Positions 11,021-44,701 of a DNA stretch of 64,000 nt are shown here, piece after piece. Source of the DNA: Candidatus Methylomirabilota bacterium (GTDB lineage: Bacteria > Methylomirabilota > Methylomirabilia > Rokubacteriales > CSP1-6); NCBI GenBank assembly GCA_036002345.1, contig DASYTM010000010.1:18978-82977 (forward strand). Reading direction: 5' to 3'. Below the pieces are notes generated by a model. It did no database searches, was not told the origin of the DNA, and saw only the letters and a list, made by a program, of their open reading frames with translations. Position numbers and translations under genes: made by a program. How positions within the stretch are numbered: the first letter of the stretch is position 1; each line of letters starts with the position of its first letter.

Positions 11021-12445
11021 CTAATTCACGCGGACGACGCGGCCACCGGTGACGCGGCGCAGCTCGTCACTGGTGAGACGAAACACGGTGTGGGGATGGC
11101 CCCCCGCGGCCCAGATCGCGTCCCACTTCAGAAGATCCTCGTCCACGAGCGTCGTGAGCGGCGCGGGATGCGCGAGCGGCGCGACGCCCCCGATGGCGAA
11201 GCCGGTGTGCGCGCGCACGAACTCGGCGTCGGCCTTCCCGAGCGGCTCGCCGAGCAGCGCGCCGAGCTTGGCCTCATCCACCCGGTTCGCGCCGCTCGTG
11301 AGCACGAGCAACGGCCGCCCGCTGTCGCGCAGCCGGAACACGAGCGATTTCACGATCTGGCCGACGTCGCACCCGACGGCGCGCGCGGCGTCGGCGGAGG
11401 TGCGCGCGGCGTGCTCGAGCACCACGATGGTGGTCGTCACCCCCGCCGCCGCCAGGGCGTCGGCGACGCGGCGCGCGCTCGCGGGCAGCGCAGCCGGAGC
11501 AGCGACGATCGACCGGCAGGCGCGCATCTGGTCGAGGTGCTCCAGGTCGTGATCCGCCATGTGCGTGACGTACTGGGCGAGGCTGAGCGGGCCGAAGAAG
11601 CCGGAGAGGCCCGGCCGCTCGCCGGCGCCGGGCGGCAGCGTGGCGAGGTACGCGACCGCTTCGGCGCGCGCGCGGCGAAACGCCGCGAGGTCGTCCTCGA
11701 ACCGGCCCGCTCGACGGTCGCGCTCGCGCGCCCACGCCACGGGATCGAAGGCGGCGAAGCGCGGGCGGTCCTCGGTGGCCATGAGCCGGAAGCGCGGGAG
11801 GAAGAGCCGGCTGTCGAGCTCCATCAGGTGGGCCAGCACTTCCTTCATCGACCACTCCTCGGGCTCCGGCCGCCGGGAGAGCGTCTCGGCGTCGAGCCCC
11901 GCGGCGAGCGCGGCCACGAGGTCGGGCGTGGCGGCGAGTGGCTTCAGCAATTCGCCGAGCGGGAGCGCCACGCGCGCCTCGCAGCGCTTGGGCGTCAGGC
12001 CCAGCGTGGCGCGCACGTCCTGGATCTGCCGCAGGTGCTCGGTGTCGTGGGCGTCCATCGTCCGCGCGTAGGCCTCGACGCTCACGGCGCCGCGGCTCGG
12101 GCTCACGCCCTCGCGGCGCCAGCCGGCCTCGTCGAGCCCGCCGAGCAGCGTGATGGTCTGCTTGCGCGCGGCGGCGAACGCCGCCAGCAGCGTGGAGAGG
12201 TCCGCGTTGTCGCCCTCGGTGCGCTGGGTCTTGTCGAACACCGGGCGCGGCTCGGCGAGCATGCGGCGCAGGCGCGGCAGGAACGTGTCGCGGTCGCCCT
12301 CGACGAGGTGGCGCACGACCTCGCCGATCGACCACTCGCCGGGCTTGGGCGGCGTCCACGCGTGCGTCCCCGGGTCGCGCGCCATCTCGCCCAGCAGCGT
12401 CGGCGTGGCGGCGAGCCGCGCGACGGTCAGCTCGCGCTCGGTCAT
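11021..12445 (-). CDS. Fusion protein: two DinB_2-like (DinB/YfiT four-helix bundle) domains + YbaK/ProX-type aminoacyl-tRNA deacylase-like domain
   Basis: Two repeats with DinB-type His motifs (HLVEGDRD...HDTEHLRQI; HLMELDSR...HDLEHLDQM). C-terminus resembles the YbaK deacylase fold (GCDVGQIVKSLVF...VLTSGANRVDEAKL...GFAIGGVAP). Start MTERELT at 12445. Confidence 0.65.
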   Translation of the reverse strand: MTERELTVARLAATPTLLGEMARDPGTHAWTPPKPGEWSIGEVVRHLVEGDRDTFLPRLRRMLAEPRPVFDKTQRTEGDNADLSTLLAAFAAARKQTITLLGGLDEAGWRREGVSPSRGAVSVEAYARTMDAHDTEHLRQIQDVRATLGLTPKRCEARVALPLGELLKPLAATPDLVAALAAGLDAETLSRRPEPEEWSMKEVLAHLMELDSRLFLPRFRLMATEDRPRFAAFDPVAWARERDRRAGRFEDDLAAFRRARAEAVAYLATLPPGAGERPGLSGFFGPLSLAQYVTHMADHDLEHLDQMRACRSIVAAPAALPASARRVADALAAAGVTTTIVVLEHAARTSADAARAVGCDVGQIVKSLVFRLRDSGRPLLVLTSGANRVDEAKLGALLGEPLGKADAEFVRAHTGFAIGGVAPLAHPAPLTTLVDEDLLKWDAIWAAGGHPHTVFRLTSDELRRVTGGRVVRVN

Positions 12446-13176
12446 AGTGACCGCACCGCGCGCAGCACGTCGGCGGGATCGGGGCGCACCTGGAAGTTGT
12501 CGGCGAGGGAGAGCCAGCGCACGGCGCCGCCGCGATCGAGCACGATGGTCGCCGGCCGCGGCACGTCCTCGCCGTGCTCGCCGCCGCGCGCGTGGATCAG
12601 TCCGTAGCGGCGCGTCACGGCCAGGTCGCGATCGGCGACGAAGCGGAAGTTGAGCTTCAGCCCGCGCGCCAGCTCCTGGCTCCGCTCGTTGGGATCCGGC
12701 GAGACGGCGATGATCTCGACGCCGGCCTTCTCGGCCTCGGACAGCGCGGCTCCAAGCCCTTGGAGCTCCGCCACGCAGAACGGTCACCAGTAGCCGCGGT
12801 AGAAGACGAGGATCACCGGCTTCTTGCCGCGATACTCCGCGAGCGTGACGGGACGGCCGCCCGCGTCGGGCAGCGTGAAGTCCGGCGCGGGCCGGCCGAC
12901 GGCGAGCGCGGTCGGTGTGTCGGGGATTCGCGCCAGCACGAAGTTGAAGGTGGCGCCGCCCGCGAAGAGCGCCAGCGTCAGCCCCAGCGCGGTCCACGCG
13001 TACCAGCGGCGGCCGAGCGCCACGGCGAGGCCGGCGAGCGTCGCCGCGATCGCGAGCGCCGCCACGTAGCCCTCGGGCTGGTTGCGCACCGCGGGCACGC
13101 GCAGCAGCAGCGCGTACGCGGCGACGGCCGCGGCGGCGACGGCGAGGCTGAGGGCGGTGAGCCAGCCGGCGCGCAT
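12442..13176 (-). CDS. Membrane-anchored TlpA/ResA-like thiol:disulfide oxidoreductase (redoxin); candidate selenoprotein with in-frame TGA (Sec) at 12784-12786 giving a W-U-P-F-C motif
   Basis: A single frame is continuous across the TGA: ...APDFTLPDAGGRPVTLAEYRGKKPVILVFYRGYW-[TGA]-PFCVAELQGLGAALSEAEKAGVEIIAVSPD... It aligns to the redoxin consensus (APDFTL...WCPPCR.E.P). The N-terminus has 3-4 TM helices. Other genes in the window use TGA as a genuine stop. Confidence 0.7.
12749..12766 (-). promoter_or_regulatory. Candidate bacterial SECIS hairpin 17 nt downstream of the in-frame UGA of the redoxin gene
   Basis: mRNA reads UGA CCGUUCUGCGUGGCGGA GCUCCA-AGGGCU-UGGAGC. This is a perfect 6-8 bp stem with a G-rich apical loop. 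Confidence 0.4.
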
Positions 13177-25800: not shown

Positions 25801-27285
25801 GTCACCGACGGCGCCGACGACCCGAGCGAGCCGCGGCGCTACCCGCTGGAAGACATCGGCCTCATGTCCGTCGTCCTCGCCACCGGCCGGCCCCTGCGGA
25901 CCGACGACTACGCGGCGGAGTGCGAGCGGCGGGGCGTGCAGCCCGTGGCGGGCTCCGCCGATCGCAAGACCTGGCTCGGCGTGCCGATGACGGCGGGCGA
26001 GCAGGTCCTCGGCGTCATCGTCCTGCGCGGGGCCGCGCGCCCCTACGGCGCCGCCGACGAGCAGCTCCTCCTCAACATCGCCCACCTGGCCGCCCTCGCC
26101 CTGCGCAGCGTGCGCCTGTACGAGGAGCGCACGCGCGCCTACGGCGAGCTGGCGGCCGCCCAGGACCAGCTCGTGCGCACCGAGAAGCTGCGCGCGCTGG
26201 GCGAGATGGCCTCCGGCGTGGCGCACGACTTCAACAACCTGCTCGCCTCCGTGCTGGGCCGCGCCCAGCTCCTGATGCGCCGCGTGCAGGACCCGCAGCA
26301 GCGGGAGTGGCTGCGTGTCATCGAGCGCTCCGCCCTGGACGGCGCGGCCACGGTGCGGCGGCTGCAGGAGTTCACGCGCATCCGTCGCGACCAGCCCATG
26401 GTGCCGCTGGACGTGGCGCAGATCGTGCGCGACGCGCTCGACATCACCCAGTCGCGCTGGCGCGAGGAGCCAGTGAGCCGCGGCATCGTCGTCGACGTCC
26501 AGGCCGATCTCGCCGCCGTGCCGCCCATCCTCGGCGACGCCGCCGAGCTCCGCGAGGCGCTCACCAACCTGATCCTCAACGCCGTGGACGCGATGCCCGC
26601 GGGCGGGACGCTGCGCCTGGTCACCGCCGCCAACGACGACCACGTGGAGGTCGCCGTGTCCGACACGGGCGTCGGCATCCCGCCCGCCGTGCGCGAGAAG
26701 ATCTTCGACCCCTTCTTCACCACCAAGGGCCCGCAGGGCACCGGGCTCGGGCTGTCGATGACCTACGGCATCGTGTCGCGGCACGGCGGCTTCGTGAGCG
26801 TGGAGAGCGAAGAGGGGCGCGGCTCCACGTTCCGGCTGTCCTTCCCGTCGGCGGCTGCCGTGGAGCCGGCGACCCCGGCCGCCAAGCCCGCCGCCTCGGC
26901 GCCCACGCGCACGCTGCGCTGTCTCGTGGTCGACGACGAGGCCGACGTGCGCAGCGTGCTCGGGGACGTCATCGAGTCCGCCGGCCACCAGGCCACGCTG
27001 ATCGCGGGCGGCGCGGACGCGATCGAGCGATTCCGCGCCGAGCCCTTCGACGTCGTGCTGACCGACCTCGCCATGCCCCGCGTCTCCGGCTGGCAGGTGG
27101 CGCGCGCCGTCAAGCAGATCGCGCCGCGCGTGCCCGTGTTCCTCGTGACGGGCTTCGGCGTGGAGCTGTCGCCCGAGGAGCGCCGCACCCACGGCGTGGA
27201 CCTCGTGCTCGTCAAGCCGCTGCAGATCCAGGAGATCCTCGACGCCCTGGCCGAGGTGGCGCGCAACGCCGCGCCGCCCGCCTGA
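19849..27285 (+). CDS. Giant multi-GAF hybrid sensor histidine kinase (2 TM + periplasmic sensor, then about 11 tandem GAF domains, HisKA, HATPase_c, C-terminal REC). The start codon is uncertain (CTG at 19849, GTG at 19906, or ATG at 19963).
   Basis: The N-terminus has two hydrophobic helices flanking a ~180-aa region. There are 10-11 recurrences of the GAF terminal-helix motif A(L/I)(E/A)NARL(Y/F/L). HisKA H-box EKLRALGEMASGVAHDFNNLLASV. HATPase GTGLGLSM. REC LRCLVVDDEADVRSVL...VVLTDLAMPRVSG. Confidence 0.85.
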   Translation: MSRGRRLLVLGAAVAGVAGVWIGGGVLLLREVDARGAAMADLAAERAGAAVAEERRALLREAALLAQEPAVVEGAARRDWATLARGAARLRSLTMEGHADLVVVLDAAGAPLLQVPASPRVELPALPPPARPTVSTVTLGGRAYLLGVAPIGGEPGGGLVVVGRRAERPAAAGGDRLRHSNEVSRQGLVRALVASGALAALAAAAIALFATRRRGPATPRAAATPAATGGRELKALYEAAVLVGSGTELEATVTQTLAVICAVARIDLGMVYRVDRASGRLALVAHYAIPPRYMDFLQTRSIEGTRIGQTARTGEHTLVDLDPARLRDPVLKEAVAREGYRTQLSLPIPVQGTTWGVMTLVSKERRRFDADELTLLHAVGHQLGLAVANAALFAETGAKSRRLETLTRVAQGLAATLPDEELFARVIGAARETFDAAAARLWLLEEDGETLVMRAGAGVELASELRRVRVGEGLTGRVVAQRAPLTVADLATDPRPLASDRLLAQGMAAYAGVPLVVGDRVLGGLAIGLARPHEFSAEELEVLTSLANLAAVAIENARLLSGERTRRQYLGALLDINTKIGAMAPTETLLTSIAEEAARLLGVDNAGFRLLEGDDLVLAGLAGTARETMLRPRIKIGESVSGKVLAAGRTLRLDIEEVPDIVPEHLVADRRHGYTKFLGVPLRIGERVIGVLTFRARWPFSARDEELAEAFAGQAAIAIEHARLVREASEQAGRLRALTDLSRLFTGTLEPDVVNERIVDSVGRLFASVSATLFRMDQATGELVPMATSAAGTRLAAPVPVLPRGVGISGLAALSRRVVVSSDVSADPNIERSDALRDWAAAVGDYSAIAVPLVVGDVLVGVLTVRGERGRVFDPADSQLAQTFGDQAALALANARLYTEATQRRAEAEELARLARTLTESLDVSEVVERTAESVLPMFRAQSSVVRLLQPDGSLVALALGGRARDQFEMGHVLPPGVGVLGRAVVNGRVASSSDLFTDRSTRVSDDLRERVHASGDGAVLAVPMRAKGVIIGALGIADRPGRIFTDGEAALLQAFADQATLALENARLFSLERARRQQIAALADIERELAAVLDAERLPDLIVERATGLFKANGALWIMDEAGGLMPRAWRGQDLTGERLGRGEGFAGLAVSERRGFITNDYARSPHAVGRYVDAGVRSIIVQPVILRDRPLGVLTMSRVSTEAPPFGVEDLALLQSFAAHAATALDNARLYEEARRYADRLRALEEVNRLVSSSLNPDEVLANLARAISQFFDAPYVSVWSLDESTGRLRRALTHGDSSLASDLHQELAPGEGAVGWVVQHREPILWTDVTTDPRIIDGAELTRAGFKSFTAYPVAIGERMLGAFAVHRASPWLLTPETASLMGSLAAQAAVALENARLYSETTRRLTETRALLEVAEVLNSTLDARQLLKRVAIKLAQILQVDRCTIERWDGDRVIPLMSQFADGRRRERMWEAFLTVTNRPLRDVPTNARAIETRRPVIVDDATDPALTPADWVAAFGLKSYMVVPMLRQEEVIGVVTLDYCERVGRFAPWQADLATAVVGQVALALENTRLYGEAQERLRETTTLLAVGRVLTERASGPEAMRRVAAEVARAFGADMAGACLLDERKERLVAVGGYHVPKDLLQAFAERPIVLDRFPWLQDAWRAGRAATSPDPHADPRFDQAWQAAMPPHSLLFVPTLAHGEPVGGLFLVWWHTGRLFDPAEIRLVEGVAAQVGLAMENAELARQTQVKLAETQTLLSVSRALSTTLDLQQLVRHFLRAVATTLGADSVGSWLVQEDGEWMEPLVGYHLPRERLADARELRISLLKHPFYAEAARTRRPVFTSDAMNDSRLPPAVRERGSHRTQLFVPVVVKDRMIAAFAAIWWETAREFSEDELALMEAIANQAGVALENGRLFEENRQRLEELSVLHDLSRAVTGQLERGAIVEAVRRHIARVLDARNLVIIVRDEERDELEVTLRVTDGADDPSEPRRYPLEDIGLMSVVLATGRPLRTDDYAAECERRGVQPVAGSADRKTWLGVPMTAGEQVLGVIVLRGAARPYGAADEQLLLNIAHLAALALRSVRLYEERTRAYGELAAAQDQLVRTEKLRALGEMASGVAHDFNNLLASVLGRAQLLMRRVQDPQQREWLRVIERSALDGAATVRRLQEFTRIRRDQPMVPLDVAQIVRDALDITQSRWREEPVSRGIVVDVQADLAAVPPILGDAAELREALTNLILNAVDAMPAGGTLRLVTAANDDHVEVAVSDTGVGIPPAVREKIFDPFFTTKGPQGTGLGLSMTYGIVSRHGGFVSVESEEGRGSTFRLSFPSAAAVEPATPAAKPAASAPTRTLRCLVVDDEADVRSVLGDVIESAGHQATLIAGGADAIERFRAEPFDVVLTDLAMPRVSGWQVARAVKQIAPRVPVFLVTGFGVELSPEERRTHGVDLVLVKPLQIQEILDALAEVARNAAPPA

Positions 27286-27300
27286 CCGGAGGAACAACCG

Positions 27301-28092
27301 ATGGCCTTCCAGCACATCATCGTCGAGCGCGCCGCGCAGGTGGCGACCGTGACTCTGAACCGTCCCGACGCCTACAACGCGCTGAACCTCGGGCTCGGGC
27401 GCGAGCTCTTCGACGCGTCCATCCAGCTCGACGAGGATCCCGGCGTGCGCTGCGTCGTCGTCACGGGCGCCGGCAAGTCGTTCTGCGCGGGCGGCGACGT
27501 GCGCGACTTCGCCGACAACCTGCCGCGGGTGAGCGCGCTCATCAAGGAGCTGACGACGTACCTGCACGGCGCGATCTCGCGCTTCTGCCGGAGCGACAAG
27601 CCCGTCATCATGGCCGTCAACGGCATCGCGGCGGGCGGCGGGATGAGCCTGGCCCTGTCCGGCGATCTCGTGGTGGCCACGGAGTCCGCGAAGTTCACCA
27701 TGGCCTATTCCAAGATCGCCGCCACGCCCGACGGCTCGTCGTCGTATTTCCTGCCACGCCTGGTCGGCCTGCGGCGCGCGATGGAGCTCTACTTCACCAA
27801 CCGCGTGCTCACGGCGCGCGAGGCGCTGGAGTGGGGGCTCGTGACGCGCGTGGTGCCGGACGCCGAGTTCAAGCCCGCCGTCGAGACGCTGGCGCGCGAG
27901 CTGGCCCGGGGCCCGTCCAAGGCCTTCGGCGGCGCCAAGCGCCTCTTCCACCAGTCCACCTGGGAGAGCCTCGAGACGCAGATGGAGCTGGAGACGCAGG
28001 CCATCGCCAACTCCGGCCGCACCGAGGACTTCAAAGCCGGCGTCACTGCCTTCGCCAACAAGAAGCAGCCGCCGCCGTTCCAGGGGCGATAA
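27301..28092 (+). CDS. Enoyl-CoA hydratase/isomerase (crotonase) family protein
   Basis: VATVTLNRPDAYNAL...VVVTGAGKSFCAGGDV...VNGIAAGGGMSLAL. Confidence 0.85.
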   Translation: MAFQHIIVERAAQVATVTLNRPDAYNALNLGLGRELFDASIQLDEDPGVRCVVVTGAGKSFCAGGDVRDFADNLPRVSALIKELTTYLHGAISRFCRSDKPVIMAVNGIAAGGGMSLALSGDLVVATESAKFTMAYSKIAATPDGSSSYFLPRLVGLRRAMELYFTNRVLTAREALEWGLVTRVVPDAEFKPAVETLARELARGPSKAFGGAKRLFHQSTWESLETQMELETQAIANSGRTEDFKAGVTAFANKKQPPPFQGR

Positions 28093-28847
28093 TGGGGACC
28101 ATGAAAGCACGCCTGTTCACCCGCCCCGGCTGATCCTCCTGCGCCAAGACGAAGGAGCTGCTCTCGTCTTGGGGGGTCGAGTTCGACCCGATCGACGTGC
28201 AGGCGGACCCGGCGGCGCGCGCGGAGATGGAGCGGCTCGGCATTCCCCGTCCGCCCGGCGTCGCCTTCCGTGAGCGCGTCGTCCACGGCTGGAACCCCGA
28301 TGCCTACGCCGAGCTGCTCGGCGTGGACTTCCGCATGGGCGTGCGCTTCACGCCCGCCGAGCTGGCCTCGCGGCTCGAGCGCGTGCTCGAGTCCGCCCAG
28401 CACCTCACGGCGCGCTTCGACGCCCGCCAGATGGAGCACGTGCCGCCCGAGCGCAAGCGCACGCTGCGCGACCTCACGTTCCACGTCTTCCGCGTGGGCC
28501 TGTCCTTCGCCGACGCCGTGGACCGCGCGGCACTGCCCGAGGAATGGTTCGAGGAGCGCGCGCCGGCGGAGCTGGTGACGGGCGGCGACGTCGCGCGCTA
28601 CGGCGCGCTCGTGCGCGCGCGCCTCACGGGCTGGTTCCAGGGCGCCGGCGCCGACGAGTTCAAGCGGACCGTGGAGACCTACTACGGCCCGCAGGCCGCC
28701 GACGAGCTGCTCGAGCGGACGACGTGGCACGCGGGCCAGCACCTGCGCCAGCTCTACGTGCTCGCCGAGCGGCTCGGGGTGACGCCGCCCGCGCCGCTCC
28801 CCAAGGACGCACTCGAGGGATTGCCGCTGCCCGACGCGCTCTGGTAG
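28092..28847 (+). CDS. Glutaredoxin-like domain fused to DinB/YfiT-like domain; candidate selenoprotein with in-frame TGA (Sec) at 28131-28133 giving G-U-S-S-C in place of the Grx CPYC motif
   Basis: The single frame MGTMKARLFTRPG-[TGA]-SSCAKTKELLSSWGVEFDPIDVQADPAARAEMERLGIPRPPGVAF closely follows the glutaredoxin N-terminal signature (vY(t/s)kpgCpyCkkAKelLeekGvefeeIDV). The DinB-like C-terminal half lies in the same frame (HLTARFDARQMEH...HAGQHLRQL). TAATG coupling to the upstream gene. Confidence 0.7.
28144..28172 (+). promoter_or_regulatory. Candidate bacterial SECIS hairpin 11 nt downstream of the in-frame UGA of the Grx-DinB gene
   Basis: CCAAGACGA-AGGAGCUGCUC-UCGUCUUGG forms a perfect 9-bp stem. 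Confidence 0.45.
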
Positions 28848-35658: not shown

Positions 35659-37092
35659 CTACTCCCACTCCCGATAGGTTTGCGGCGAGAGCTCGTCGGC
35701 GCCGCGGCCCGCCCAGTCGAACGACTTCATGCGCGGCCACATGCGGTCGCCGCCGGCCTGGAGGTCGGCGAGGATCTTCGCCTCGTCGGCGGCGAGGACG
35801 CGGCCGCGGTCCACCACGAGGCGGCCGCCGACCCACACGCGATCGACGTCCTCCGCCGTCGCGTTGTAGACGAGGTTCTTCACGGGGTCGCGCAGCGGCG
35901 TCATGGTCCAGGACGACGCCTTCCAGAGCACGAGGTCCGCCGCCGCGCCGGGCGCAATCCGGCCGAGATCGTCGCGGCCGAGCGCCCGCGCCCCGCCGAG
36001 GGTGGCGGCGTCGAAGACGTCGCCGGCCGTCGTGGCCGCGGTGTTGCGCTCGACGATCTTGCTGCCGATGGCGGCCCAGCGCATGGCCTCGAGGACGGAC
36101 TGGGGATTGGTGTCGGTGCCGAGCGCGACGTTGATGCCGGCCTTGCGATAGAGCGCGAACGACTCGAGCAGCATGCCGCGCCGCATGAACACCCACGGCG
36201 CGTGGGCCACCGAGCAGCCGGCCTCCGCCATGATCTCCACGTCGCCGGCGGGGTAGTTGGTCCACGACGAGCCGCCGATGATGATGGCGTGGCCGAGGAT
36301 CGTGTTCTCCCCGAGCACGCCGAGGTCGTCGAGCCACGCCACCGGCGTCTTGCCGTGGCGCTGGAGCATCTCGTTGAACTCGACGACCGACTGCGAGGTG
36401 TGCACGGTGTAGGGACGCCGGGCCTCGTCGGCGCGCGCCTTCGCCTCGATCAAGAGCTCCGGCGTGCACGTGTCCACCTGCATCGGCGAGAACGCACAGC
36501 GCACGAGGCCGCCGTGGGCGCCGTCGTGCTTCTCCATGAACTCCACGGCGCGCTCGAGCCCCTGGCGTCCGGCCTCCTCGTTCCACTCCCAGACCACGCG
36601 CTTGCCGTCGCGCGTGAGCCACTGGCCCGAGCGAAAGCCGAGCCCCATGTACACGCGCAGGCCGTAGTGTCCGGCGCGCTCGGCCACGTAGGCGCCGAGC
36701 CCGCCGATCTCGAGGGCCGTCGTCACGCCGCCGCGCAGCAACTCGGCCATCGAGAAGTCCACGCACGCGCGCCCGGCCTCCGGGTCCTGCGCGCCGCCGC
36801 GGACCGGCAGCATCTCGAAGAGCCCCGAGTACCAGAACTGCGGGCTGCCCCGGTCCTCGATGAAGGAGCGGTCGAGCGGCGAGCCGCCCATGTGGACGTG
36901 GGTGGTGATGAGCCCGGGCGTCAGCACCCGGTCGCGCGCGTCGATCGTCTCGTCGGCCTGGCCCTCGAGCGTCCGGCCGACGTGGACGACGCGGTCGCCC
37001 TCGAGCACGACCACGCCGTCGCGCAGCAGCCGGTGGCCGTGGCCGTCGAAGGCGACGATCCACCCCGCGCGGATGGCGGTCCGGCGCGCCAT
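35659..37092 (-). CDS. Amidohydrolase family protein (chlorohydrolase/aminohydrolase, SsnA/guanine-deaminase-like)
   Basis: Metal-binding HxH (PGLITTHVHM). HAIIIGGSSW...VALGTDTN. C-terminal aspartate typical of the TIM-barrel amidohydrolase superfamily. Confidence 0.85.
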   Translation of the reverse strand: MARRTAIRAGWIVAFDGHGHRLLRDGVVVLEGDRVVHVGRTLEGQADETIDARDRVLTPGLITTHVHMGGSPLDRSFIEDRGSPQFWYSGLFEMLPVRGGAQDPEAGRACVDFSMAELLRGGVTTALEIGGLGAYVAERAGHYGLRVYMGLGFRSGQWLTRDGKRVVWEWNEEAGRQGLERAVEFMEKHDGAHGGLVRCAFSPMQVDTCTPELLIEAKARADEARRPYTVHTSQSVVEFNEMLQRHGKTPVAWLDDLGVLGENTILGHAIIIGGSSWTNYPAGDVEIMAEAGCSVAHAPWVFMRRGMLLESFALYRKAGINVALGTDTNPQSVLEAMRWAAIGSKIVERNTAATTAGDVFDAATLGGARALGRDDLGRIAPGAAADLVLWKASSWTMTPLRDPVKNLVYNATAEDVDRVWVGGRLVVDRGRVLAADEAKILADLQAGGDRMWPRMKSFDWAGRGADELSPQTYREWE

Positions 37093-38951
37093 TACTTGGC
37101 GACGATGGCCGGATCGAGCCGCATCACCACGTAGCCGCCGACGGCGCCCGCGCCGAAGCCCGGCGCGAAGAGCCGCATCGGGCGGTCGATCTTGCCGTCC
37201 TGGACGGCGTCGTAGATCGCGAGAGGGATCGAGGCGGACGAGGTGTTGCCCACGCGCTCGATGTTGAAGTAGAGCTGATCGGGCTGGAGCCCGGCGGCCT
37301 TGGCGTAGTGGACGACCATCGTCTTGTTCGCCTGGTGCGGCACGATGAGGTCGATGGCGTTCAGCAGCGAGCCGCTCTCCCCCCGGGGATTCGGCAGGGC
37401 GCCGAGCTCGCGGATCATCTGCGTGAGGTAGCGCTTCACGAGCGCCTTCACCTCGGGGCCGAAGACGGTGATGTTGTTGTCGAACTCCGGGTTCGGCCAG
37501 ACGATCGAGTCCACCTCGCTCATCGGCCCGCTCGCGTACGTCTGGAAGTACTCGACGTCGGGCGGCGTGCCGGCAGGGGCGGGGCCCACCACGACGGCGG
37601 CGGCGCCGTCGCCGAAGATCATGCGCGAGGTGCGCACGGTGCCGATCTTGTCGGAGAACTTCTCGCCGCACACCACGAGCACCGGCCGCTCGACCTCCTG
37701 GAGCAGGCGGATCGCCTCCGAGAGCCCGTAGGGGAGCCCCGCGCAGGCGGCCACGATGTCGCACGAGGCGTGGGTCTGGAACATGCCGAGCCGGCCCGAC
37801 AGCCACGTGGCGAGCGACGGCATCATCTTGGCGCTCGTGCAGGAGCAGAAGAGCACGGCGCCGATCTCCTCCGGCTTGCGCCGCGCCTTGTCGAGCGCGC
37901 CCTGGGCGGCGAGCAGCGCGATGTGGTCGAGGTCGAGGTCGGTGTAGAGCCGCTGCCGGATGCCGGTCTTCTCCTCGATCTCGTCCGCCGTCATCGGCGA
38001 CCACGAGTACGCCGCGTTGCGGATGAGGTCGTCGTTGGTGCACGGACGCTCGCCCTGGTAGACGGCCAGCGCCTCCAGCCGCGGCATGATCTTGAACTGC
38101 TTGCGCACGTCCACGGGCGGGTAGGGCGTGGCGGGCTGACGCGCGGCGAGCGCGGGCGGCTTGGGGGGCCGGCTGCGCTGGCCGCGCTTCACGCGGCGGA
38201 TGAAGTCGCGCACCTCGTCGTTGCGCGGGTGGTACACGACCACGAAGTCGTCGTCGGCGAGCTTGCCCACCTCGATCACGCGCATGCGGTCGCGGTCCCA
38301 GCGGAACTGGTTGTGCAGCACCATCATCTGGCGGAGCAGCGCCTCCAGCTCGGGCACGGCGTGGCTGCACTCCACGATGTCGTCGTGGCCGTAGCCCGGG
38401 AAGTCCGGGTTGTGCACGAGCAGGTGGTAGGTGCGGTTCTTCGAGCTCGACAGGATCTCCGACACCGTCGGCTTGATGGGCTCCAGCTCCGCGCCCGCGC
38501 CGGCCTTGTGGCGGAACACGTCGATGAGCACGCGGAAGATCTTGTCCTCCGTCCCCTCGTCCCACGTGGGCTTGAGCGCGCGGTAGCCGCGCTCGATGGC
38601 CGCCGTCAGCTCGCCGCCCTCCCACGGCTTGAAGATCGGGAGGAAGACGTCGTCGCGCTGCCGCGGCACGTCGCGCCAGCGCGTCGGCCGCTTCTCGTAC
38701 ATGGTCAGCGCGTAGCGGTTGACCCAGAAGAGATCGAGGGCGAGGTCGCGCAGCAGGTCGTAACGGCCGCGGTAGGCCGCCGACTCCAGGCGCGTGACGA
38801 TGTCGATCTCCGTCGGCGCCTTTTCCTCGAAGTCACGACGGATGACCGCGCTGAACTGGTCCAGCGTCTCGAAGACGGAGAAGTCGAGGTTGGGGAAGAA
38901 GTTGGATGGGAACACCATCCGTCCGTAGCGATTGATCACAAAGGGCTTCAT
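37092..38951 (-). CDS. Two-domain protein: unrecognised ~290-aa N-terminal domain fused to a 3-oxoacyl-ACP synthase III (FabH/KAS III-like) C-terminal domain
   Basis: C-terminal half carries KAS III motifs (AVLFCSCTSAKMMPSLATWLSGRLGM, active-site Cys; HQANKTMV; GNTSSASIPLAI). N-terminal half (MKPFVINRYGRMVFPSNFFPNLDF...HLLVHNPDFPGYGHDDIVECSH...) has no family I can name. GAGGAG RBS 9 nt upstream. TAATG coupling to the amidohydrolase. Confidence 0.8.
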   Translation of the reverse strand: MKPFVINRYGRMVFPSNFFPNLDFSVFETLDQFSAVIRRDFEEKAPTEIDIVTRLESAAYRGRYDLLRDLALDLFWVNRYALTMYEKRPTRWRDVPRQRDDVFLPIFKPWEGGELTAAIERGYRALKPTWDEGTEDKIFRVLIDVFRHKAGAGAELEPIKPTVSEILSSSKNRTYHLLVHNPDFPGYGHDDIVECSHAVPELEALLRQMMVLHNQFRWDRDRMRVIEVGKLADDDFVVVYHPRNDEVRDFIRRVKRGQRSRPPKPPALAARQPATPYPPVDVRKQFKIMPRLEALAVYQGERPCTNDDLIRNAAYSWSPMTADEIEEKTGIRQRLYTDLDLDHIALLAAQGALDKARRKPEEIGAVLFCSCTSAKMMPSLATWLSGRLGMFQTHASCDIVAACAGLPYGLSEAIRLLQEVERPVLVVCGEKFSDKIGTVRTSRMIFGDGAAAVVVGPAPAGTPPDVEYFQTYASGPMSEVDSIVWPNPEFDNNITVFGPEVKALVKRYLTQMIRELGALPNPRGESGSLLNAIDLIVPHQANKTMVVHYAKAAGLQPDQLYFNIERVGNTSSASIPLAIYDAVQDGKIDRPMRLFAPGFGAGAVGGYVVMRLDPAIVAK

Positions 38952-38977
38952 GGCGGGCTGCTCCTCGACCGCGACTA

Positions 38978-38983
38978 TATAAT
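38978..38983 (+). promoter_or_regulatory. TATAAT -10 hexamer 5 nt upstream of ATG of the PDO-like gene (leaderless arrangement), in a divergent promoter region shared with the KAS III fusion gene
   Basis: cgacTATATAATgaggcATGccc. Confidence 0.4.
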
Positions 38984-38988
38984 GAGGC

Positions 38989-39633
38989 ATGCCCATTCTC
39001 CAGCCCCGCGACGAGGAAGCCGTTCGCAAGGAGTTCCAGCGCCTCGCCGGACCCGTGAAGCTGGTCGTCTTTTCTCAGGAGCTGGTGGCGGGCGACCTCT
39101 GCCGTCAGAACGAGCAGCTGTTGAAGGAGGTCGCGGCGCTCTCGGACCAGATCACCGTCGAGGTGCTCAACCCTGCCATCGACAAGGACCGCGCCGCCGC
39201 CTACGGCATCGACCAGGTCCCGGCCACCGTCGTGGAGGGCGCGCGCGACTACGGCATCCGCTTCCTCGGCGTGCCCGCCGGCTACGAGTTCAGCAACCTC
39301 ATCGACTCGATCATCGCCGTGTCGAGCGGGGAGGCCATGCTGACCGCGGACACCAAGGCCTCGCTGGCCGCGCTGGCCGGCGACGTCGAGATCAAGGTCT
39401 TCTCCACCCCCACCTGACCGCACTGTCCCCGGGCCGTGCGCCTGGCACAGCACATGGCGATCGCGTCGGACCGCGTGACGGCCACGGCCATCGACGCCTC
39501 GGAGTTTCCCGACCTCGCGCGCGCCTACCAGGTGAGCGGCGTGCCGAAGATCGTCATCAACGACAAAGTCGAGCTGCTCGGCGCGTACCCGGAGCCGCAG
39601 TTCCTCGAGGCGGTGCTGCGCGCCGTCGCATGA
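38989..39633 (+). CDS. AhpF-N-terminal/PDO-like glutaredoxin-like protein disulfide oxidoreductase (two thioredoxin-fold units); candidate selenoprotein with in-frame TGA (Sec) at 39415-39417 giving T-U-P-H-C (DsbA-type CPHC motif with Sec)
   Basis: The frame is continuous: ...DVEIKVFSTPT-[TGA]-PHCPRAVRLAQHMAIASDRVTATAIDASEFPDLARAYQVSGVPKIVINDKVELLGAYPE... It matches the second (CxxC-bearing) unit of AhpF-NTD/PDO proteins (CPYCP...ID..EFPELA.KY.V.SVP.IVIN). Confidence 0.65.
39423..39450 (+). promoter_or_regulatory. Candidate bacterial SECIS hairpin 6 nt downstream of the in-frame UGA of the PDO-like gene
   Basis: CUGUCC-CCGGGC-CGUGC-GCCUGG-CACAG forms an extended, near-perfect stem (one G•U) with a 5-nt loop. 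Confidence 0.4.
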
Positions 39634-40339
39634 CCCCAGGTCCGGGCGAGATCTACCAGCGCGAGATGGTGCCCGCCTCCTTCGCGCGGTGGGCGCCCGA
39701 CCTCGTGGCCCTCGCCGCGCCGAAGGCCGGCGAGCGCGTGCTCGACGTGGCGTGCGGCACGGGGGTGGTCACGCGGCTCGTCGCCGAGCGCGTCCAGCCC
39801 TCCGGCCGCGCGGTCGGGATCGACATCAACGCCGACATGCTCTCGGCCGGTCGCGCCGCGTCGCAAGGCCTCCCCATCGAGTGGCACGAGGGCAGCGCGG
39901 TCGCGCTGCCGTTCGCGAGATGCGCCGCGTGCTCGTGCCGGGCGGCCGGCTGGCCGTGTCCTGCTGGCGCTCCGCGGAGCATCAGCCGGGCCCGCGCGCG
40001 CTGGAGGAGGCCATGGTTCGGCGGCTCGGCCCGCACGCCGCCTCGCTGCCGCCGCTCTCCCTGGGCGACCGCGAGACGCTGCGCGGCCTCATCATGGGCG
40101 CGGGCTTTCGCGACGTGCGCATCCGCGCCGAGGTGAAGACGGTGCGCTACGTCTCGGCCGAGCGGTTCGTGCGCATGCGGGTCGAGGGCGCCCCCACCAT
40201 GATGGGCGTGCTGCGCGACGCCGGACCGGACGCCGTCGCCGCCATCGTGGCCGACGTGGAGGCGGCGCTGCGCGAGTACGTCGACGACGAGGGGCTGGCG
40301 TTTCCCATGGCCGCCCACGTCGTCACCGCGGTGGCCTGA
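39630..40339 (+). pseudogene. Class I SAM-dependent methyltransferase (Methyltransf_11/25-like), disrupted by a frameshift plus loss of ~25-30 codons near 39905
   Basis: Frame 0 (39630-) gives motif I (VLDVACGTGVVTRL) through ...GSAVALPFA. Frame 2 (to 40339) continues ...EMRRVLVPGGRLAVSC... to a credible C-terminus. The post-I/motif II segment between LPF and EMRRVL that such enzymes normally have is absent. Confidence 0.5.
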
Positions 40340-43453: not shown

Positions 43454-44701
43454 GTGCGACTGACTCGTCGAGACTTCGTGAAGACCACCGCGGCCGCCGC
43501 GCTGCTGGCCGGCGTGCCGGCCGGCTGGCGCGGGAGCGCGTACGCCTCGGACGCGCCCGAGCATCCGAAGATGCGCATCGGGATCATCGCCCTCACCGAC
43601 TGCTCGTCGATCGTCATGGCCCACGAGCTCGGGCTCTTCAAGAAGCACGGGATCGAGTCCACGATCTCGAAGGAAGCGTCGTGGGCGGTGATCCGCGACC
43701 GCCTCACCCTCGGCGAGAACCAGGCCACGCACCTGCTGCTCGGCATTCCGTACGCGGCGACCATGGGGCTTCAGGGCTCGCCCGTGAAGCCGATGATCAT
43801 CCCGATGTACCTCAACCGGAACGGGCAAGCCATCACGCTCACCAAGGCGCTGCTCGACAAGGGTGTGAAGACGCCGCAGCAGCTCAAGCCGCACGCCATG
43901 GAGGCGAAGGGCAAGGGCAGCCCGATGACGTTCGCCATGACGTACCCCCCGGGCACGCACGCGATGTGGACGCGCTACTGGCTGGCGGCGGGCGGGATCA
44001 ATCCCGATCGTGACGTCACGCTGATAACGATTCCGCCGGCGCAGATGGTGGCCAACATGAAGGTCGGCAAGATGGACGGCTACTGCGTGGGCGAGCCGTG
44101 GGGCGCGCGCGCCATCGCGGATGGCATCGGGTTCACCGCCATCACCACGCAGCAGATCTGGAAGGACCACCCCGAGAAGGTGCTCGGCTTCACGGAAGAG
44201 TTCGCCGCGAAGAACCCGAAGACGGTGAAGGCGGTGATGCGCGCCATCGTCGAGGCGAGCCAGTGGAACGACAAGCTCGAGAACCGCCCGAGGATGGCGG
44301 AGGTGGTCGGCCAGCCGCAGTACGTCAACGCGTCCAGGGAGACGATCCTGGGCCGCATGCTGGGCGATTACGAGTACGGCGACGGGCGCAAGGAGAAGGA
44401 CAAGTTCTACATGACCTTCTTCGACCGCCAGACCAACTTCCCGATGAAGTCGCACGGCACGTGGTGGCTCACGCAGTTCCGGCGCTGGGGCATGGTCAAG
44501 GAGCCGCCGGACTACAAGGGCCTCGTCGACCGCGTCCACCGGCCCGACATCTTCCGCGAGGTCGCCAAGGAGATGGGCATCGAGACGCCGCGCGGCGACG
44601 CGGAGAAGACGACGTTCTTCGACGGCGGCGTGTTCGATCCCGGCACGGATCCCGAAAAGTACGTGAAGGGCTTCGCCGTCCACACCATGGGGGCGGCGTG
44701 A
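43454..44701 (+). CDS. nrtA: Nitrate ABC transporter substrate-binding protein NrtA, Tat signal peptide
   Basis: [13 protein letters not shown]. Tat motif TRRDFVKTTAAAALLAG. NrtA/CmpA-like core (KMRIGIIALTDCSSIVMAHELGLFKKHG). An upstream ATG at 43382 is also in frame. Confidence 0.85.
   Translation: MRLTRRDFVKTTAAAALLAGVPAGWRGSAYASDAPEHPKMRIGIIALTDCSSIVMAHELGLFKKHGIESTISKEASWAVIRDRLTLGENQATHLLLGIPYAATMGLQGSPVKPMIIPMYLNRNGQAITLTKALLDKGVKTPQQLKPHAMEAKGKGSPMTFAMTYPPGTHAMWTRYWLAAGGINPDRDVTLITIPPAQMVANMKVGKMDGYCVGEPWGARAIADGIGFTAITTQQIWKDHPEKVLGFTEEFAAKNPKTVKAVMRAIVEASQWNDKLENRPRMAEVVGQPQYVNASRETILGRMLGDYEYGDGRKEKDKFYMTFFDRQTNFPMKSHGTWWLTQFRRWGMVKEPPDYKGLVDRVHRPDIFREVAKEMGIETPRGDAEKTTFFDGGVFDPGTDPEKYVKGFAVHTMGAA

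Follow-up and report, generated by a model that had tools for sequence, protein, structure and literature searches.

The plus strand of the 64-kb stretch of DNA analysed here (the window, meaning the whole of that stretch) carries at 38989..39633 a coding sequence of 214 residues plus a terminal TGA, which is preceded by a −10-like hexamer, interrupted by an internal TGA, followed within the frame by a hairpin and overlapped at its end by a methyltransferase open reading frame (ORF). Translation of 38989-39633 revealed a single in-frame TGA at 39415-39417 (...KVFSTPT*PHCPRAVRLAQH...), and the ORFs on its two sides (38989-39417, 142 residues; 39436-39633, 65 residues) share a common frame, as the initial annotation had noted. 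The third-position GC content (GC3) of this coding sequence was 0.94 upstream of the TGA and 0.93 downstream. A minus-strand ORF at 38833-39453 was discarded as a shadow that mirrors the coding plus-strand frame with its GC3 of 0.94. The interval 38989-39633 most likely represents a single gene encoding a thiol-disulfide oxidoreductase of two domains, in which the in-frame TGA encodes selenocysteine (Sec).

The read-through product, with U written as C for profile scoring, matched the NCBIfam model TIGR02187.2 (“PDO_seleno_TRX”), which stands for the protein disulfide oxidoreductase (PDO) family, at 257.7 bits against a curated cut-off of 185, residues 7-211 corresponding to profile positions 3-208 of 209; the Pfam matches were Thioredoxin_3 and DUF7088. 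Comparison by phmmer aligned residues 3-213 with the PDO structures of Pyrococcus furiosus (1A8L; E=2.2e-42) and P. horikoshii (1J08; E=3.5e-43) and with 2YWM and 2AYT (about 1e-41), and in both 1A8L and 1J08 the TGA fell on the first Cys of CPYC. The alignment to P. furiosus PDO that had been proposed as a check thus runs from end to end and puts the TGA at the leading Cys of the CxxC in the C-terminal unit (C-unit), and full-length homology to solved PDO structures predicts two thioredoxin-fold units. The earlier description of the product as AhpF-N/PDO-like holds for the PDO family, whereas a stand-alone PDO, not AhpF, is indicated by the AhpF model TIGR03140, which reached 74.6 bits against a cut-off of 502.9 and matched only in its N-terminal-domain part (positions 7-183 of 515). 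Membership in DsbA (PF01323) was likewise rejected, at 20.3 bits against a gathering threshold of 25.6 and with no single stretch passing alone; the label ‘DsbA-type’ given to the motif at the TGA therefore reduces to a resemblance, which the orthologs (n=81: the window and 80 species-level loci, most of them from Methylomirabilota/Rokubacteria) divide between UPHC (42) and UPYC (39).

The in-frame TGA occupies the position of a catalytic cysteine

The TGA at 39415..39417 (plus strand) is the predicted Sec codon for residue 143, on the evidence of ortholog conservation and of Cys in homologs, and by alignment it opens the U-P-H-C redox motif of the C-terminal thioredoxin-fold unit (39415..39426, plus strand). 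Its assignment to the first Cys position of the C-unit CxxC, made earlier from the sequence, agrees with both the PDO alignments and the family representatives. The full-length homolog P0001, which is 72% identical, has Cys at the TGA position (TPT-C-PHC); Cys stands in the same column in ~140 of 150 family cluster representatives, and the motif reads CPYC or CPHC in 120 of the 150.

The N-terminal unit (N-unit) differs. There, Cys38 (39100..39102, plus strand), aligned to the second Cys of CQYC in the N-unit of P. furiosus PDO, is the sole Cys remaining of the CxxC, and the second CxxC that archaeal PDOs have in this unit (PMC7465337) is replaced in the window by G-D-L-C. Across the 81 orthologs the first position of the N-unit motif is Gly, Ala, Pro or Gln and never Cys, unlike most family representatives, which have a CxxC here. 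The TIGR02187 HMM has no requirement for an N-unit CxxC, and the AhpF N-terminal domain is also without one. Because the N-unit CxxC has degenerated to x-x-x-C in the clade, U-x-x-C is left as the only complete redox centre; the loss qualifies the predicted function, isomerase activity not being expected, rather than family membership.

Orthologs conserve the TGA and the frame beyond it

The TGA is kept at the Sec position in 81/81 orthologs, and the frame 3′ of it stays open for 71-83 codons. Diversity at the three codon positions downstream of the TGA was 0.13/0.11/0.38 in the 81-ortholog comparison, and amino-acid identity was 80% downstream vs 73% upstream. On these comparative data, the segment 3′ of the TGA is under purifying selection and evolves as coding sequence. 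The six codons from the TGA to the GTG at 39436 (PHCPRA) show 91% protein identity with variable third positions, a combination indicating that these codons, too, are translated. One metagenomic contig (L081) has TTA at the Sec codon. An apparent Leu-form (P0002) was considered as a non-Sec lineage and rejected, its TTA being one base from TGA and its hairpin intact.

A putative bSECIS hairpin follows the TGA

Minimum free energy (MFE) folding, RNAalifold, the published criteria for bacterial SECIS elements (bSECIS) and silent-site constraint together point to a putative bSECIS hairpin at 39423..39450 (plus strand). In its lower stem CUGU (39423-39426) pairs with ACAG (39447-39450), and in its upper stem CCGGGC (39429-39434) pairs with GCCUGG (39440-39445) around the apical loop CGUGC (39435-39439). 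The folding energy (dG) is −13.4 kcal/mol. The hairpin reported in the initial annotation is thus real and starts, as stated there, 6 nt past the UGA, its first paired base being the sixth nucleotide, but ‘long’ and ‘extended’ overstated a stem of 10 bp that a CC/C internal loop interrupts.

The bSECIS model used was the consensus of Zhang & Gladyshev 2005 as summarised in Fig. 2A of PMC13188914, which specifies a loop of 3-9 nt, an upper stem of 4-16 bp, 16-37 nt from UGA to loop and an MFE <= −7.5, with a G among the first two loop positions (PMC13188914). The modelling recommended earlier placed the hairpin within 4/4 of the published criteria (loop of 5 nt, upper stem of 6 bp, 17 nt from UGA to loop, MFE of −13.4), and the loop has the G at position 2, followed by U. 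Unlike in the consensus, N1 and N2 of the commonest loop, CGUGC, are C and C and cannot pair as preferred; in the rarer ortholog loops GGUGC, GGUAC and GGUCC they can.

Judged on the single sequence alone, the hairpin is no more than chance: its energy resembles that of shuffled sequence at 72% GC (z = 0.53, −0.11 and 0.04 for three folding windows), and the MFE fold of a 61-nt window differs from the conserved hairpin. Rfam at gathering thresholds gave no matches in the whole window, and it contains no usable model of the bacterial SECIS with which to score the hairpin. RNAalifold on the 81 sequences recovered the same fold as the single-sequence hairpin. Formal covariation was weak: 7/10 pairs are invariant, and double changes occur at one pair only (pair 12-33; C-G 33, U-A 19, U-G 16, unpaired 13; Fisher p=3e-5, uncorrected for phylogeny), which 13 of the 47 distinct sequences leave unpaired, while the observed covariation score was reached in 17/500 shuffles. 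We therefore used silent-site constraint as the evidence for the hairpin. Silent-site diversity was 0.039 in the six stem codons vs ~0.4 elsewhere, and of the 92 four-fold-degenerate codon columns just 4 never vary, all of them in the stem (permutation, 0/200,000). Furthermore, CGG and CGC, two different Arg codons, are each fixed in the stem, which argues against a simple codon preference. In one ortholog (L064) an R-to-Q change converts a G-U pair to A-U. Part of the nucleotide invariance of the hairpin coincides with a strongly conserved peptide, CPRAVRL. With its fit to the published geometry, strong silent-site constraint and weak covariation, the hairpin is best described as a putative bSECIS.

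Promoter and gene neighbourhood

The −10-like hexamer TATAAT, previously reported 5 nt ahead of the ATG at 38989, is present at 38978..38983 (plus strand) as part of a putative leaderless promoter. In 70/72 orthologous loci the start codon is preceded at 5-7 nt by a TAnAnT hexamer, where ~0.004 per locus would be expected, and a Shine-Dalgarno-like motif at −15..−5 occurs in 0/72; no −35 match was found on the plus strand. The conserved −10 box and the missing Shine-Dalgarno motif favour the leaderless transcript that had been proposed, and the mRNA is probably leaderless, with a start site predicted from the −10 box that stands 5-7 nt before the ATG.

At the other end of the gene, the PDO stop (39631-39633) forms an ATGA overlap (39630..39633, plus strand) with the start of a ubiE/COQ5-type methyltransferase ORF. 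This methyltransferase appears internally deleted and frameshifted in the window and is missing from 80/80 related loci, so the ATGA coupling is specific to the source genome and lies outside the conserved unit. The conserved neighbours are a GGACT-like gene and a class-III aminotransferase; neither a thioredoxin reductase nor a peroxiredoxin gene was a conserved neighbour in the loci compared.

Predicted selenocysteine context in the window and the phylum

The locus had been described as the third TGA-at-CxxC instance within 27 kb, and the two others were indeed found: a UxxC TGA at 12786-12784 on the minus strand (YW-U-PFC, in an AhpC/TSA protein encoded at 12442-13176) and another at 28131-28133 on the plus strand (RPG-U-SSC, in a Glutaredoxin+DinB_2 protein). 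A third-position-GC scan of the whole window returned only five TGAs with coding-like flanks in the same frame, two of them in UxxC motifs; the third UxxC site fell outside this filter, its upstream flank of 13 codons being too short. Neither the 64-kb window nor the 80 loci retrieved showed any of selA, selB, selC and selD, ARAGORN detected no tRNA-Sec but only tRNA-Pro in the window and 46 loci, and crude motif scans of window and loci sequence for SelB, SelD and SelA signatures were empty. The literature describes a Methylomirabilota metagenome-assembled genome (MAG) with 63 predicted selenoprotein genes as well as Sec-type hydrogenases in Methylomirabilota, and treats the phylum as selenoprotein-rich. 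Together with the multiple UxxC genes, this record suggests that the source genome is competent for Sec.

Alternative readings of the in-frame TGA

Read-through of the UGA could in principle occur without Sec, for example by a near-cognate Trp or Cys tRNA or by lineage-specific codon reassignment, with the conserved nucleotides acting in, say, ribosome pausing or mRNA stability, and both the empty searches for Sec machinery in window and loci sequence and the weak covariation for a specific SECIS fold speak in its favour. Reassignment is rejected, however, by TGA being the main ordinary stop codon in the source genome and in the orthologs. The TGA, moreover, stands at the catalytic Cys of a CxxC, a classic site of Sec/Cys exchange, where Trp or Gly at residue 143 would destroy the redox centre. 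Considering also that the family is established as a predicted UxxC selenoprotein, that the hairpin geometry matches the bSECIS model and that an abundance of selenoproteins is reported for the phylum, we regard Sec-independent read-through as highly unlikely.

A genuine stop at the TGA, which would yield a 142-residue N-unit protein and leave the C-unit either to be made separately from the GTG at 39436 or not to be made, has on its side more than 100 public protein clusters, including VGT02_00880 of the source genome, in which the 142-residue product is given as complete (‘hypothetical protein’ or ‘AhpF’), as well as the location of the GTG just 18 nt 3′ of the TGA and the non-significance of hairpin energy taken alone. 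Yet the translated codons of PHCPRA lie ahead of that GTG, the GTG sits inside the apical loop of the hairpin without a Shine-Dalgarno motif, and it is replaced by GTA or GTC in 4/81 orthologs. A product started there would be without strand beta-1 and the entire CxxC motif, and the N-unit by itself has no CxxC. The internal stop is TGA in every ortholog; the true end of the gene, in contrast, is marked by TGA (70), TAG (8) or TAA (3), with TAG or TAA in 11/81. P0001, with Cys, and the ~140 full-length family representatives are single polypeptides. The scenario that the initial annotation had named as refuting its proposal, a separate Grx-like N-unit plus a GTG-started 65-residue protein, is hence contradicted by the downstream selection, the GTG variation and the absence of an N-unit CxxC, and we consider the probability of a genuine stop to be very small indeed.

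Finally, the TGA might reflect faulty sequencing or assembly, or mark a Cys-PDO that recently became a pseudogene. A one-base change from TGC or TGT to TGA would be enough, and the TTA of L081 indicates that single-base variants or errors do occur at this codon, but the same TGA in 81 independent assemblies (66-91% protein identity), with purifying selection downstream, effectively refutes this reading, which retains a negligible probability.

Discussion

Our results make it very likely that the locus encodes a 214-residue PDO whose UGA at 39415 is read as Sec by way of the hairpin SECIS, with U-P-H-C as its sole complete redox centre and a leaderless mRNA. By this mechanism the hairpin at 39423-39450, 6 nt downstream of the codon, would serve as the bSECIS and bring SelB-GTP-Sec-tRNA(Sec) to the UGA-paused ribosome, and Sec would be the N-terminal nucleophilic residue of the C-unit centre. 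The product would be a cytoplasmic PDO, a protein also known by the names glutaredoxin-like protein and ‘homolog of the AhpF N-terminal domain’. An NAD(P)H-dependent thioredoxin reductase would supply its electrons, which it would hand on to disulfide substrates or peroxiredoxins. PDO is known to be reduced by NADPH and thioredoxin reductase and to regenerate Bcp peroxiredoxins; the Sulfolobus solfataricus enzyme is reduced by thioredoxin reductase and has disulfide reductase and peroxiredoxin-regenerating activity, and the thiol-transferase activity of PDO resides in the C-terminal site (PMC7465337). By analogy with archaeal PDO, which is the sole basis for naming redox partners, these donor and acceptor roles are the most likely ones, and the protein most likely functions as a reductase or thiol-transferase, not as an isomerase.

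A bolder proposal is that Methylomirabilota have remodelled the PDO scaffold to give an obligate single-centre selenoenzyme, a distinct subtype that could serve as dedicated reductant in a thiol-peroxidase relay based on selenium. With one Cys in the N-unit, UxxC in the C-unit and Sec fixed in all species examined, such an enzyme could regenerate, for example, the Sec-containing AhpC/TSA and Grx-DinB proteins of the same window, and Cys38 of the N-unit might act as a resolving residue toward a selenenyl intermediate. If true, this would be a functional subtype, beyond a Sec variant of a Cys enzyme; we think it unlikely.

As gene callers stop at the Sec codon, the active site and the second domain have been lost from annotation, and the JGI name ‘AhpF’ for the 142-residue fragments is misleading, given the lack of a reductase module and the TIGR03140 score under its cut-off. 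A corrected annotation returns a conserved redox enzyme to the proteome of a phylum widespread in soil and groundwater and gives a family of selenoproteins with few known hosts an example that spans a clade. In addition, the 81 orthologs form a natural and clean data set for studying the constraint that a bSECIS puts on silent sites within a coding region. The gene is a real but ordinary addition to a family whose selenoproteins were first predicted in 2004, and it leaves the present picture of Sec decoding and PDO function unchanged.

Comparison with known PDO and AhpF proteins

The Sec-containing TIGR02187 family was predicted by Kryukov & Gladyshev 2004, as cited in a review, and PDO is already listed as a high-confidence predicted UxxC selenoprotein; examples are ABB15282.1 of Carboxydothermus hydrogenoformans and the Symbiobacterium thermophilum protein (PMC13188914, PMC9312934, PMC1794560). 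Compared by published description, the window protein shares with these Sec-PDOs the NCBIfam family, the placement of Sec in UxxC and the type of evidence, namely a Sec/Cys pair with a downstream hairpin. It differs from them in coming from Methylomirabilota/Rokubacteria rather than from Clostridia and Symbiobacterium, and in the degenerate N-unit CxxC, a feature of the Methylomirabilota clade; and whereas a 2006 survey listed only two occurrences of the family, Sec is fixed here in all 81 orthologs.

With the P. furiosus and P. horikoshii PDOs the resemblance extends over the two thioredoxin folds (residues 3-213, E about 1e-42), TPTCPYCP there aligning with TPT-U-PHCP here. The PDOs of Pyrococcus, Aquifex and Sulfolobus, however, have Cys in place of Sec and an extra N-unit CxxC (CQYC) where the window protein has G-D-L-C, and they come from hyperthermophiles, in contrast to the soil and groundwater metagenomes that yielded the Methylomirabilota clade. 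The AhpF N-terminal domain (1ZYN, 1HYU), a distant match (E about 1e-13), has the same tandem thioredoxin fold with a redox-active CxxC in the second fold only. In function it is an electron shuttle that is charged by a flavoprotein disulfide reductase and delivers to a peroxiredoxin; in contrast to AhpF, the window protein stands free of a fused FAD/NAD(P)H reductase module.

Reading frame and TGA sites

Translation of 38989-39633 (+) in a single frame gave a 214-codon product with one internal TGA (39415-39417; ...DVEIKVFSTPT-[TGA]-PHCPRAVRLAQHM...), in agreement with the initial annotation, which had described two ORFs in a common frame (38989-39417, 142 aa, and 39436-39633, 65 aa) with the TGA between them. 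Because the window has a GC content of 70-76%, raw ORF lists were crowded with shadow ORFs, and third-position GC (GC3) was therefore taken as the coding signal. GC3 in this plus-strand frame was 0.94 upstream and 0.93 downstream of the TGA. Only five TGAs in the entire window were flanked on each side by coding-like sequence of one shared frame: those at 27283 and 53813 are ordinary stops whose frame is taken up again by the next gene, the minus-strand TGA at 43773 looks spurious, and the remaining two, at 39415 (+) and 12786 (-), lie in U-x-x-C motifs (U, selenocysteine, Sec) of a protein disulfide oxidoreductase (PDO) gene and of an AhpC/TSA protein (YW-U-PFC). The filter passed over a further UxxC site, TGA 28131-28133 (+) in a Glutaredoxin+DinB_2 protein (RPG-U-SSC), because only 13 codons of the gene precede it; the initial tally, which made the PDO TGA the third such instance at a CxxC within 27 kb, was correct.

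The two other sites belong to candidate selenoproteins. The gene at 12442-13176 (-; TGA 12786-12784) encodes a membrane-anchored AhpC/TSA (Redoxin) protein, ...VILVFYRGYW-[TGA]-PFC..., with a coding-like frame on either side of the TGA and a hairpin downstream, and is in keeping with the known 'Prx-like thiol:disulfide oxidoreductase' UxxC selenoprotein family. The gene at 28092-28847 (+) fuses a Glutaredoxin domain to a DinB_2 domain (MGTMKARLFTRPG-[TGA]-SSC), has a strong hairpin of 9 bp or more downstream of the TGA (dG -21.3, z -1.7), and gives weak NCBIfam matches to GlrX_YruB and the 'Uxx_star' glutaredoxin-like (seleno)protein.

Protein family and redox motifs

When the read-through product, with U written as C, was searched against NCBIfam profiles, it matched TIGR02187.2 ('PDO_seleno_TRX, protein disulfide oxidoreductase') over nearly the whole profile with 257.7 bits against a curated cut-off of 185, and Pfam identified DUF7088 as its N-terminal unit (N-unit) and Thioredoxin_3 as its C-terminal unit (C-unit). 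Residues 3-213 align with the solved PDOs of P. horikoshii (1J08, 3.5e-43) and P. furiosus (1A8L, 2.2e-42) and with the Aquifex structures 2YWM and 2AYT; in the alignment to PDO structures the TGA coincides exactly with the first Cys of the C-unit active site, TPTCPYCP. The comparison suggested initially, with P. furiosus PDO and with AhpF N-terminal domains, set 2.2e-42 against only distant similarity (~1e-13), and the AhpF model scored 74.6 against a cut-off of 502.9; AhpF identity was rejected, and by these alignments the predicted product is a stand-alone PDO. The original 'DsbA-type' describes a resemblance of the U-P-H-C redox motif; membership of DsbA was rejected, the DsbA model falling under threshold on the read-through product.

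The TGA position is occupied by Cys in a full-length homolog that is 72% identical, P0001. A family survey, in which the Cys-form homolog was compared with 1.84 billion cluster representatives, showed Cys at the U column in ~140 of the best 150 matches (CPYC 97, CPHC 23), most of which also have the N-unit CxxC. In the Sec-PDO clade the N-unit motif is G/A-D/E-L-C, with a first position that is never Cys in the 81 orthologs, which leaves U-x-x-C as the sole complete redox centre.

Conservation of the TGA and of the downstream frame

The exact 142-aa product was found by protein search in a Methylomirabilota MAG (hypothetical protein VGT02_00880), together with over 100 relatives (80-95% identical), every one called at exactly 142 aa and many named 'AhpF' by JGI; such uniformity is the signature of gene callers halting at a conserved TGA. 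A different database protein, P0106 (199 aa), joins the N-terminal ~130 PDO residues to a C-terminus of GGACT type (PF06094); a deletion that runs from the Sec codon into the gene next to it, or a chimeric assembly across this stretch, could account for the fusion.

A scan of one genome per species yielded 80 loci, almost all from Rokubacteria/Methylomirabilota MAGs, with 66-91% identity and tblastn matches that cross the TGA. Four near-identical Sec-PDO loci (L026, L036, L059 and L076; 67-74% identity to the window) come from MAGs labelled Binatia, Actinomycetota, Acidoferrum and Dormiibacterota, and may be better explained by mis-binning of Rokubacteria contigs than by horizontal transfer. 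With the window included, TGA occupies the Sec codon in 81/81 and the frame stays open for 71-83 further codons, while the terminal stop varies (TGA 70, TAG 8, TAA 3). Pairwise differences at codon positions 1/2/3 were 0.13/0.11/0.38 downstream of the TGA and 0.18/0.16/0.38 upstream, and amino-acid identity was higher downstream (80%) than upstream (73%), indicating that the downstream part is translated in frame under purifying selection.

These data rule out a split gene, the arrangement that the initial annotation had named as its refutation, in which a separate upstream protein would be accompanied by a 65-aa product started at its own GTG. The TGA is kept in every ortholog, the six codons between TGA and GTG are conserved as protein (91% identity), the GTG is replaced by GTA or GTC in four species, and a GTG-started product would entirely lack a CxxC. 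A sequencing error or pseudogene is likewise ruled out by the invariant TGA and the purifying selection beyond it. The original observation and its interpretation, a UGA that most likely encodes Sec in a PDO-type oxidoreductase, were both correct.

One apparent exception, P0002, has Leu at the Sec codon and is the only full-length relative with neither Sec nor Cys. Its gene (L081:177-836, on the 1.4-kb metagenomic contig Ga0597037_0494071) carries TTA, one base from TGA and a very rare codon at this GC content, and its putative SECIS hairpin is wholly preserved; most likely the TTA is an erroneous base call or arose from TGA by a very recent mutation. If real, the Leu would leave an inactive active site.

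Silent-site constraint in the putative SECIS hairpin

The hairpin reported downstream of the UGA was recovered by folding: numbered from the U of UGA as 1, the stem joins 9-12 to 33-36 and 15-20 to 26-31 around the loop CGUGC (21-25; dG -13.4 kcal/mol), and RNAalifold independently predicted the identical structure from the 81-sequence alignment. The bacterial SECIS (bSECIS) model, as set out in PMC13188914, has an apical loop of 3-9 nt, an upper stem of 4-16 bp, a G at the first or second loop position, a UGA-loop spacing of 16-37 nt and an MFE <= -7.5 kcal/mol. Modelling, as proposed initially, placed the putative hairpin within all four published constraints (loop 5 nt with G at position 2, then U; upper stem 6 bp; spacing 17 nt). 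Its energy was no better than that of dinucleotide shuffles (z ~ 0), so the hairpin by itself is no evidence at this GC content. Covariation is weak: 7/10 pairs never vary among the 81 orthologs, and compensatory changes occur only at pair 12-33 (C-G 33, U-A 19, U-G 16, unpaired 13 of 81; Fisher p = 3e-5 without phylogenetic correction); 17/500 shuffles reached the observed covariation score.

The strong evidence for the SECIS element is silent-site constraint. Codons U+4 to U+9 (CCC CGG GCC GTG CGC CTG) are essentially frozen, with a third-position diversity of 0.039 versus ~0.4 elsewhere; only 4/92 four-fold-degenerate codon columns have zero entropy, and all four fall within this six-codon run (permutation test, 0/200,000). 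Arg is fixed as CGG at one codon of the stem and as CGC at another, which is not the outcome expected of codon preference, and the sole residue replaced in the stem, an Arg that is Gln in locus L064, converts a G-U pair to A-U.

Putative promoter and gene neighbourhood

The TATAAT claimed 5 nt upstream of the PDO ATG was found at 38978-38983, and a TAnAnT hexamer lies 5-7 nt upstream in 70/72 orthologous loci with an identifiable start (chance expectation ~0.004 per locus), the remaining upstream sequence being unrelated. A Shine-Dalgarno-like motif was present in 0 of 72 loci. This pattern supports the proposal that the PDO transcript would be leaderless, although a consensus scan of the plus strand gave no -35 match.

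The gene order PDO, GGACT-like gene (PF06094) and class-III aminotransferase is kept in ~75/80 loci. Just 37 nt upstream of the PDO ATG a FabH-like gene starts in the divergent direction; its product has a beta-ketoacyl-ACP synthase III domain and an N-terminal extension of ~290 aa, and a FabH-like gene is the upstream neighbour in 44/80 loci. The consensus scan gave a minus-strand promoter-like site (39002 to 38974; TGGAGA, 17 nt, TATAGT) whose -10 overlaps the plus-strand TATAAT within the intergenic region (38949-38988), and a single AT-rich box may serve both divergent genes. Overlapping the PDO stop (ATGA), a ubiE/COQ5-type methyltransferase ORF (39630-40339, +) appears broken: its N-terminal part runs in the frame of 39630 up to ~39917 (...ALPFA), its C-terminal part (VREMRRVLVPGG...) in a different frame from ~39911, and ~25 expected core residues are missing. 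None of the 80 related loci has this ORF, and PDO is directly followed there by the GGACT-like gene; an insertion in decay, or an artefact of assembly, could explain it. Two genes upstream of PDO, a chlorohydrolase-family amidohydrolase (35659-37063, -; NF004801, 421.6 bits, cut-off 416) weakly matches the putative selenium-metabolism protein SsnA (TIGR03314; 105 bits, far under cut-off), probably a shared superfamily signal.

Proposed mechanism and comparison with known selenoproteins

With the ribosome at the UGA, SelB carrying Sec-tRNA(Sec) would bind the hairpin, and Sec would enter the U-P-H-C centre of the C-unit as its nucleophilic residue. Neither tRNA-Sec nor recognisable sel genes were found in the 64-kb window or the fetched loci; the Sec machinery step is supported by the presence of three UxxC genes in the window and by literature on the phylum, which reports 63 predicted selenoprotein genes in one Methylomirabilota MAG and group 4 hydrogenases of the Sec type in Methylomirabilota. 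We infer the functional steps by homology. Characterised PDOs are reduced by NADPH and thioredoxin reductase and then regenerate Bcp peroxiredoxins; their thiol-transferase activity resides at the C-terminal site and their isomerase activity requires both sites (PMC7465337). Because the N-unit site is degenerate, the Sec-PDO is predicted to act as a reductase or thiol-transferase, not an isomerase.

The family is already listed with high confidence among predicted UxxC selenoproteins; its prediction is credited to Kryukov & Gladyshev 2004, and a 2006 survey has it in Carboxydothermus hydrogenoformans and Symbiobacterium thermophilum (PMC13188914, PMC9312934 and PMC1794560). The NCBIfam model name itself includes 'seleno'. 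The PDO gene is thus a new, clade-wide addition to a family of selenoproteins that had been predicted before, in a phylum for which richness in selenoproteins has already been noted; the finding is real and would not surprise a specialist. Specific to this PDO gene are the fixation of Sec in all orthologs examined, the loss of the N-unit CxxC and the systematic mis-annotation in databases as a 142-aa fragment.
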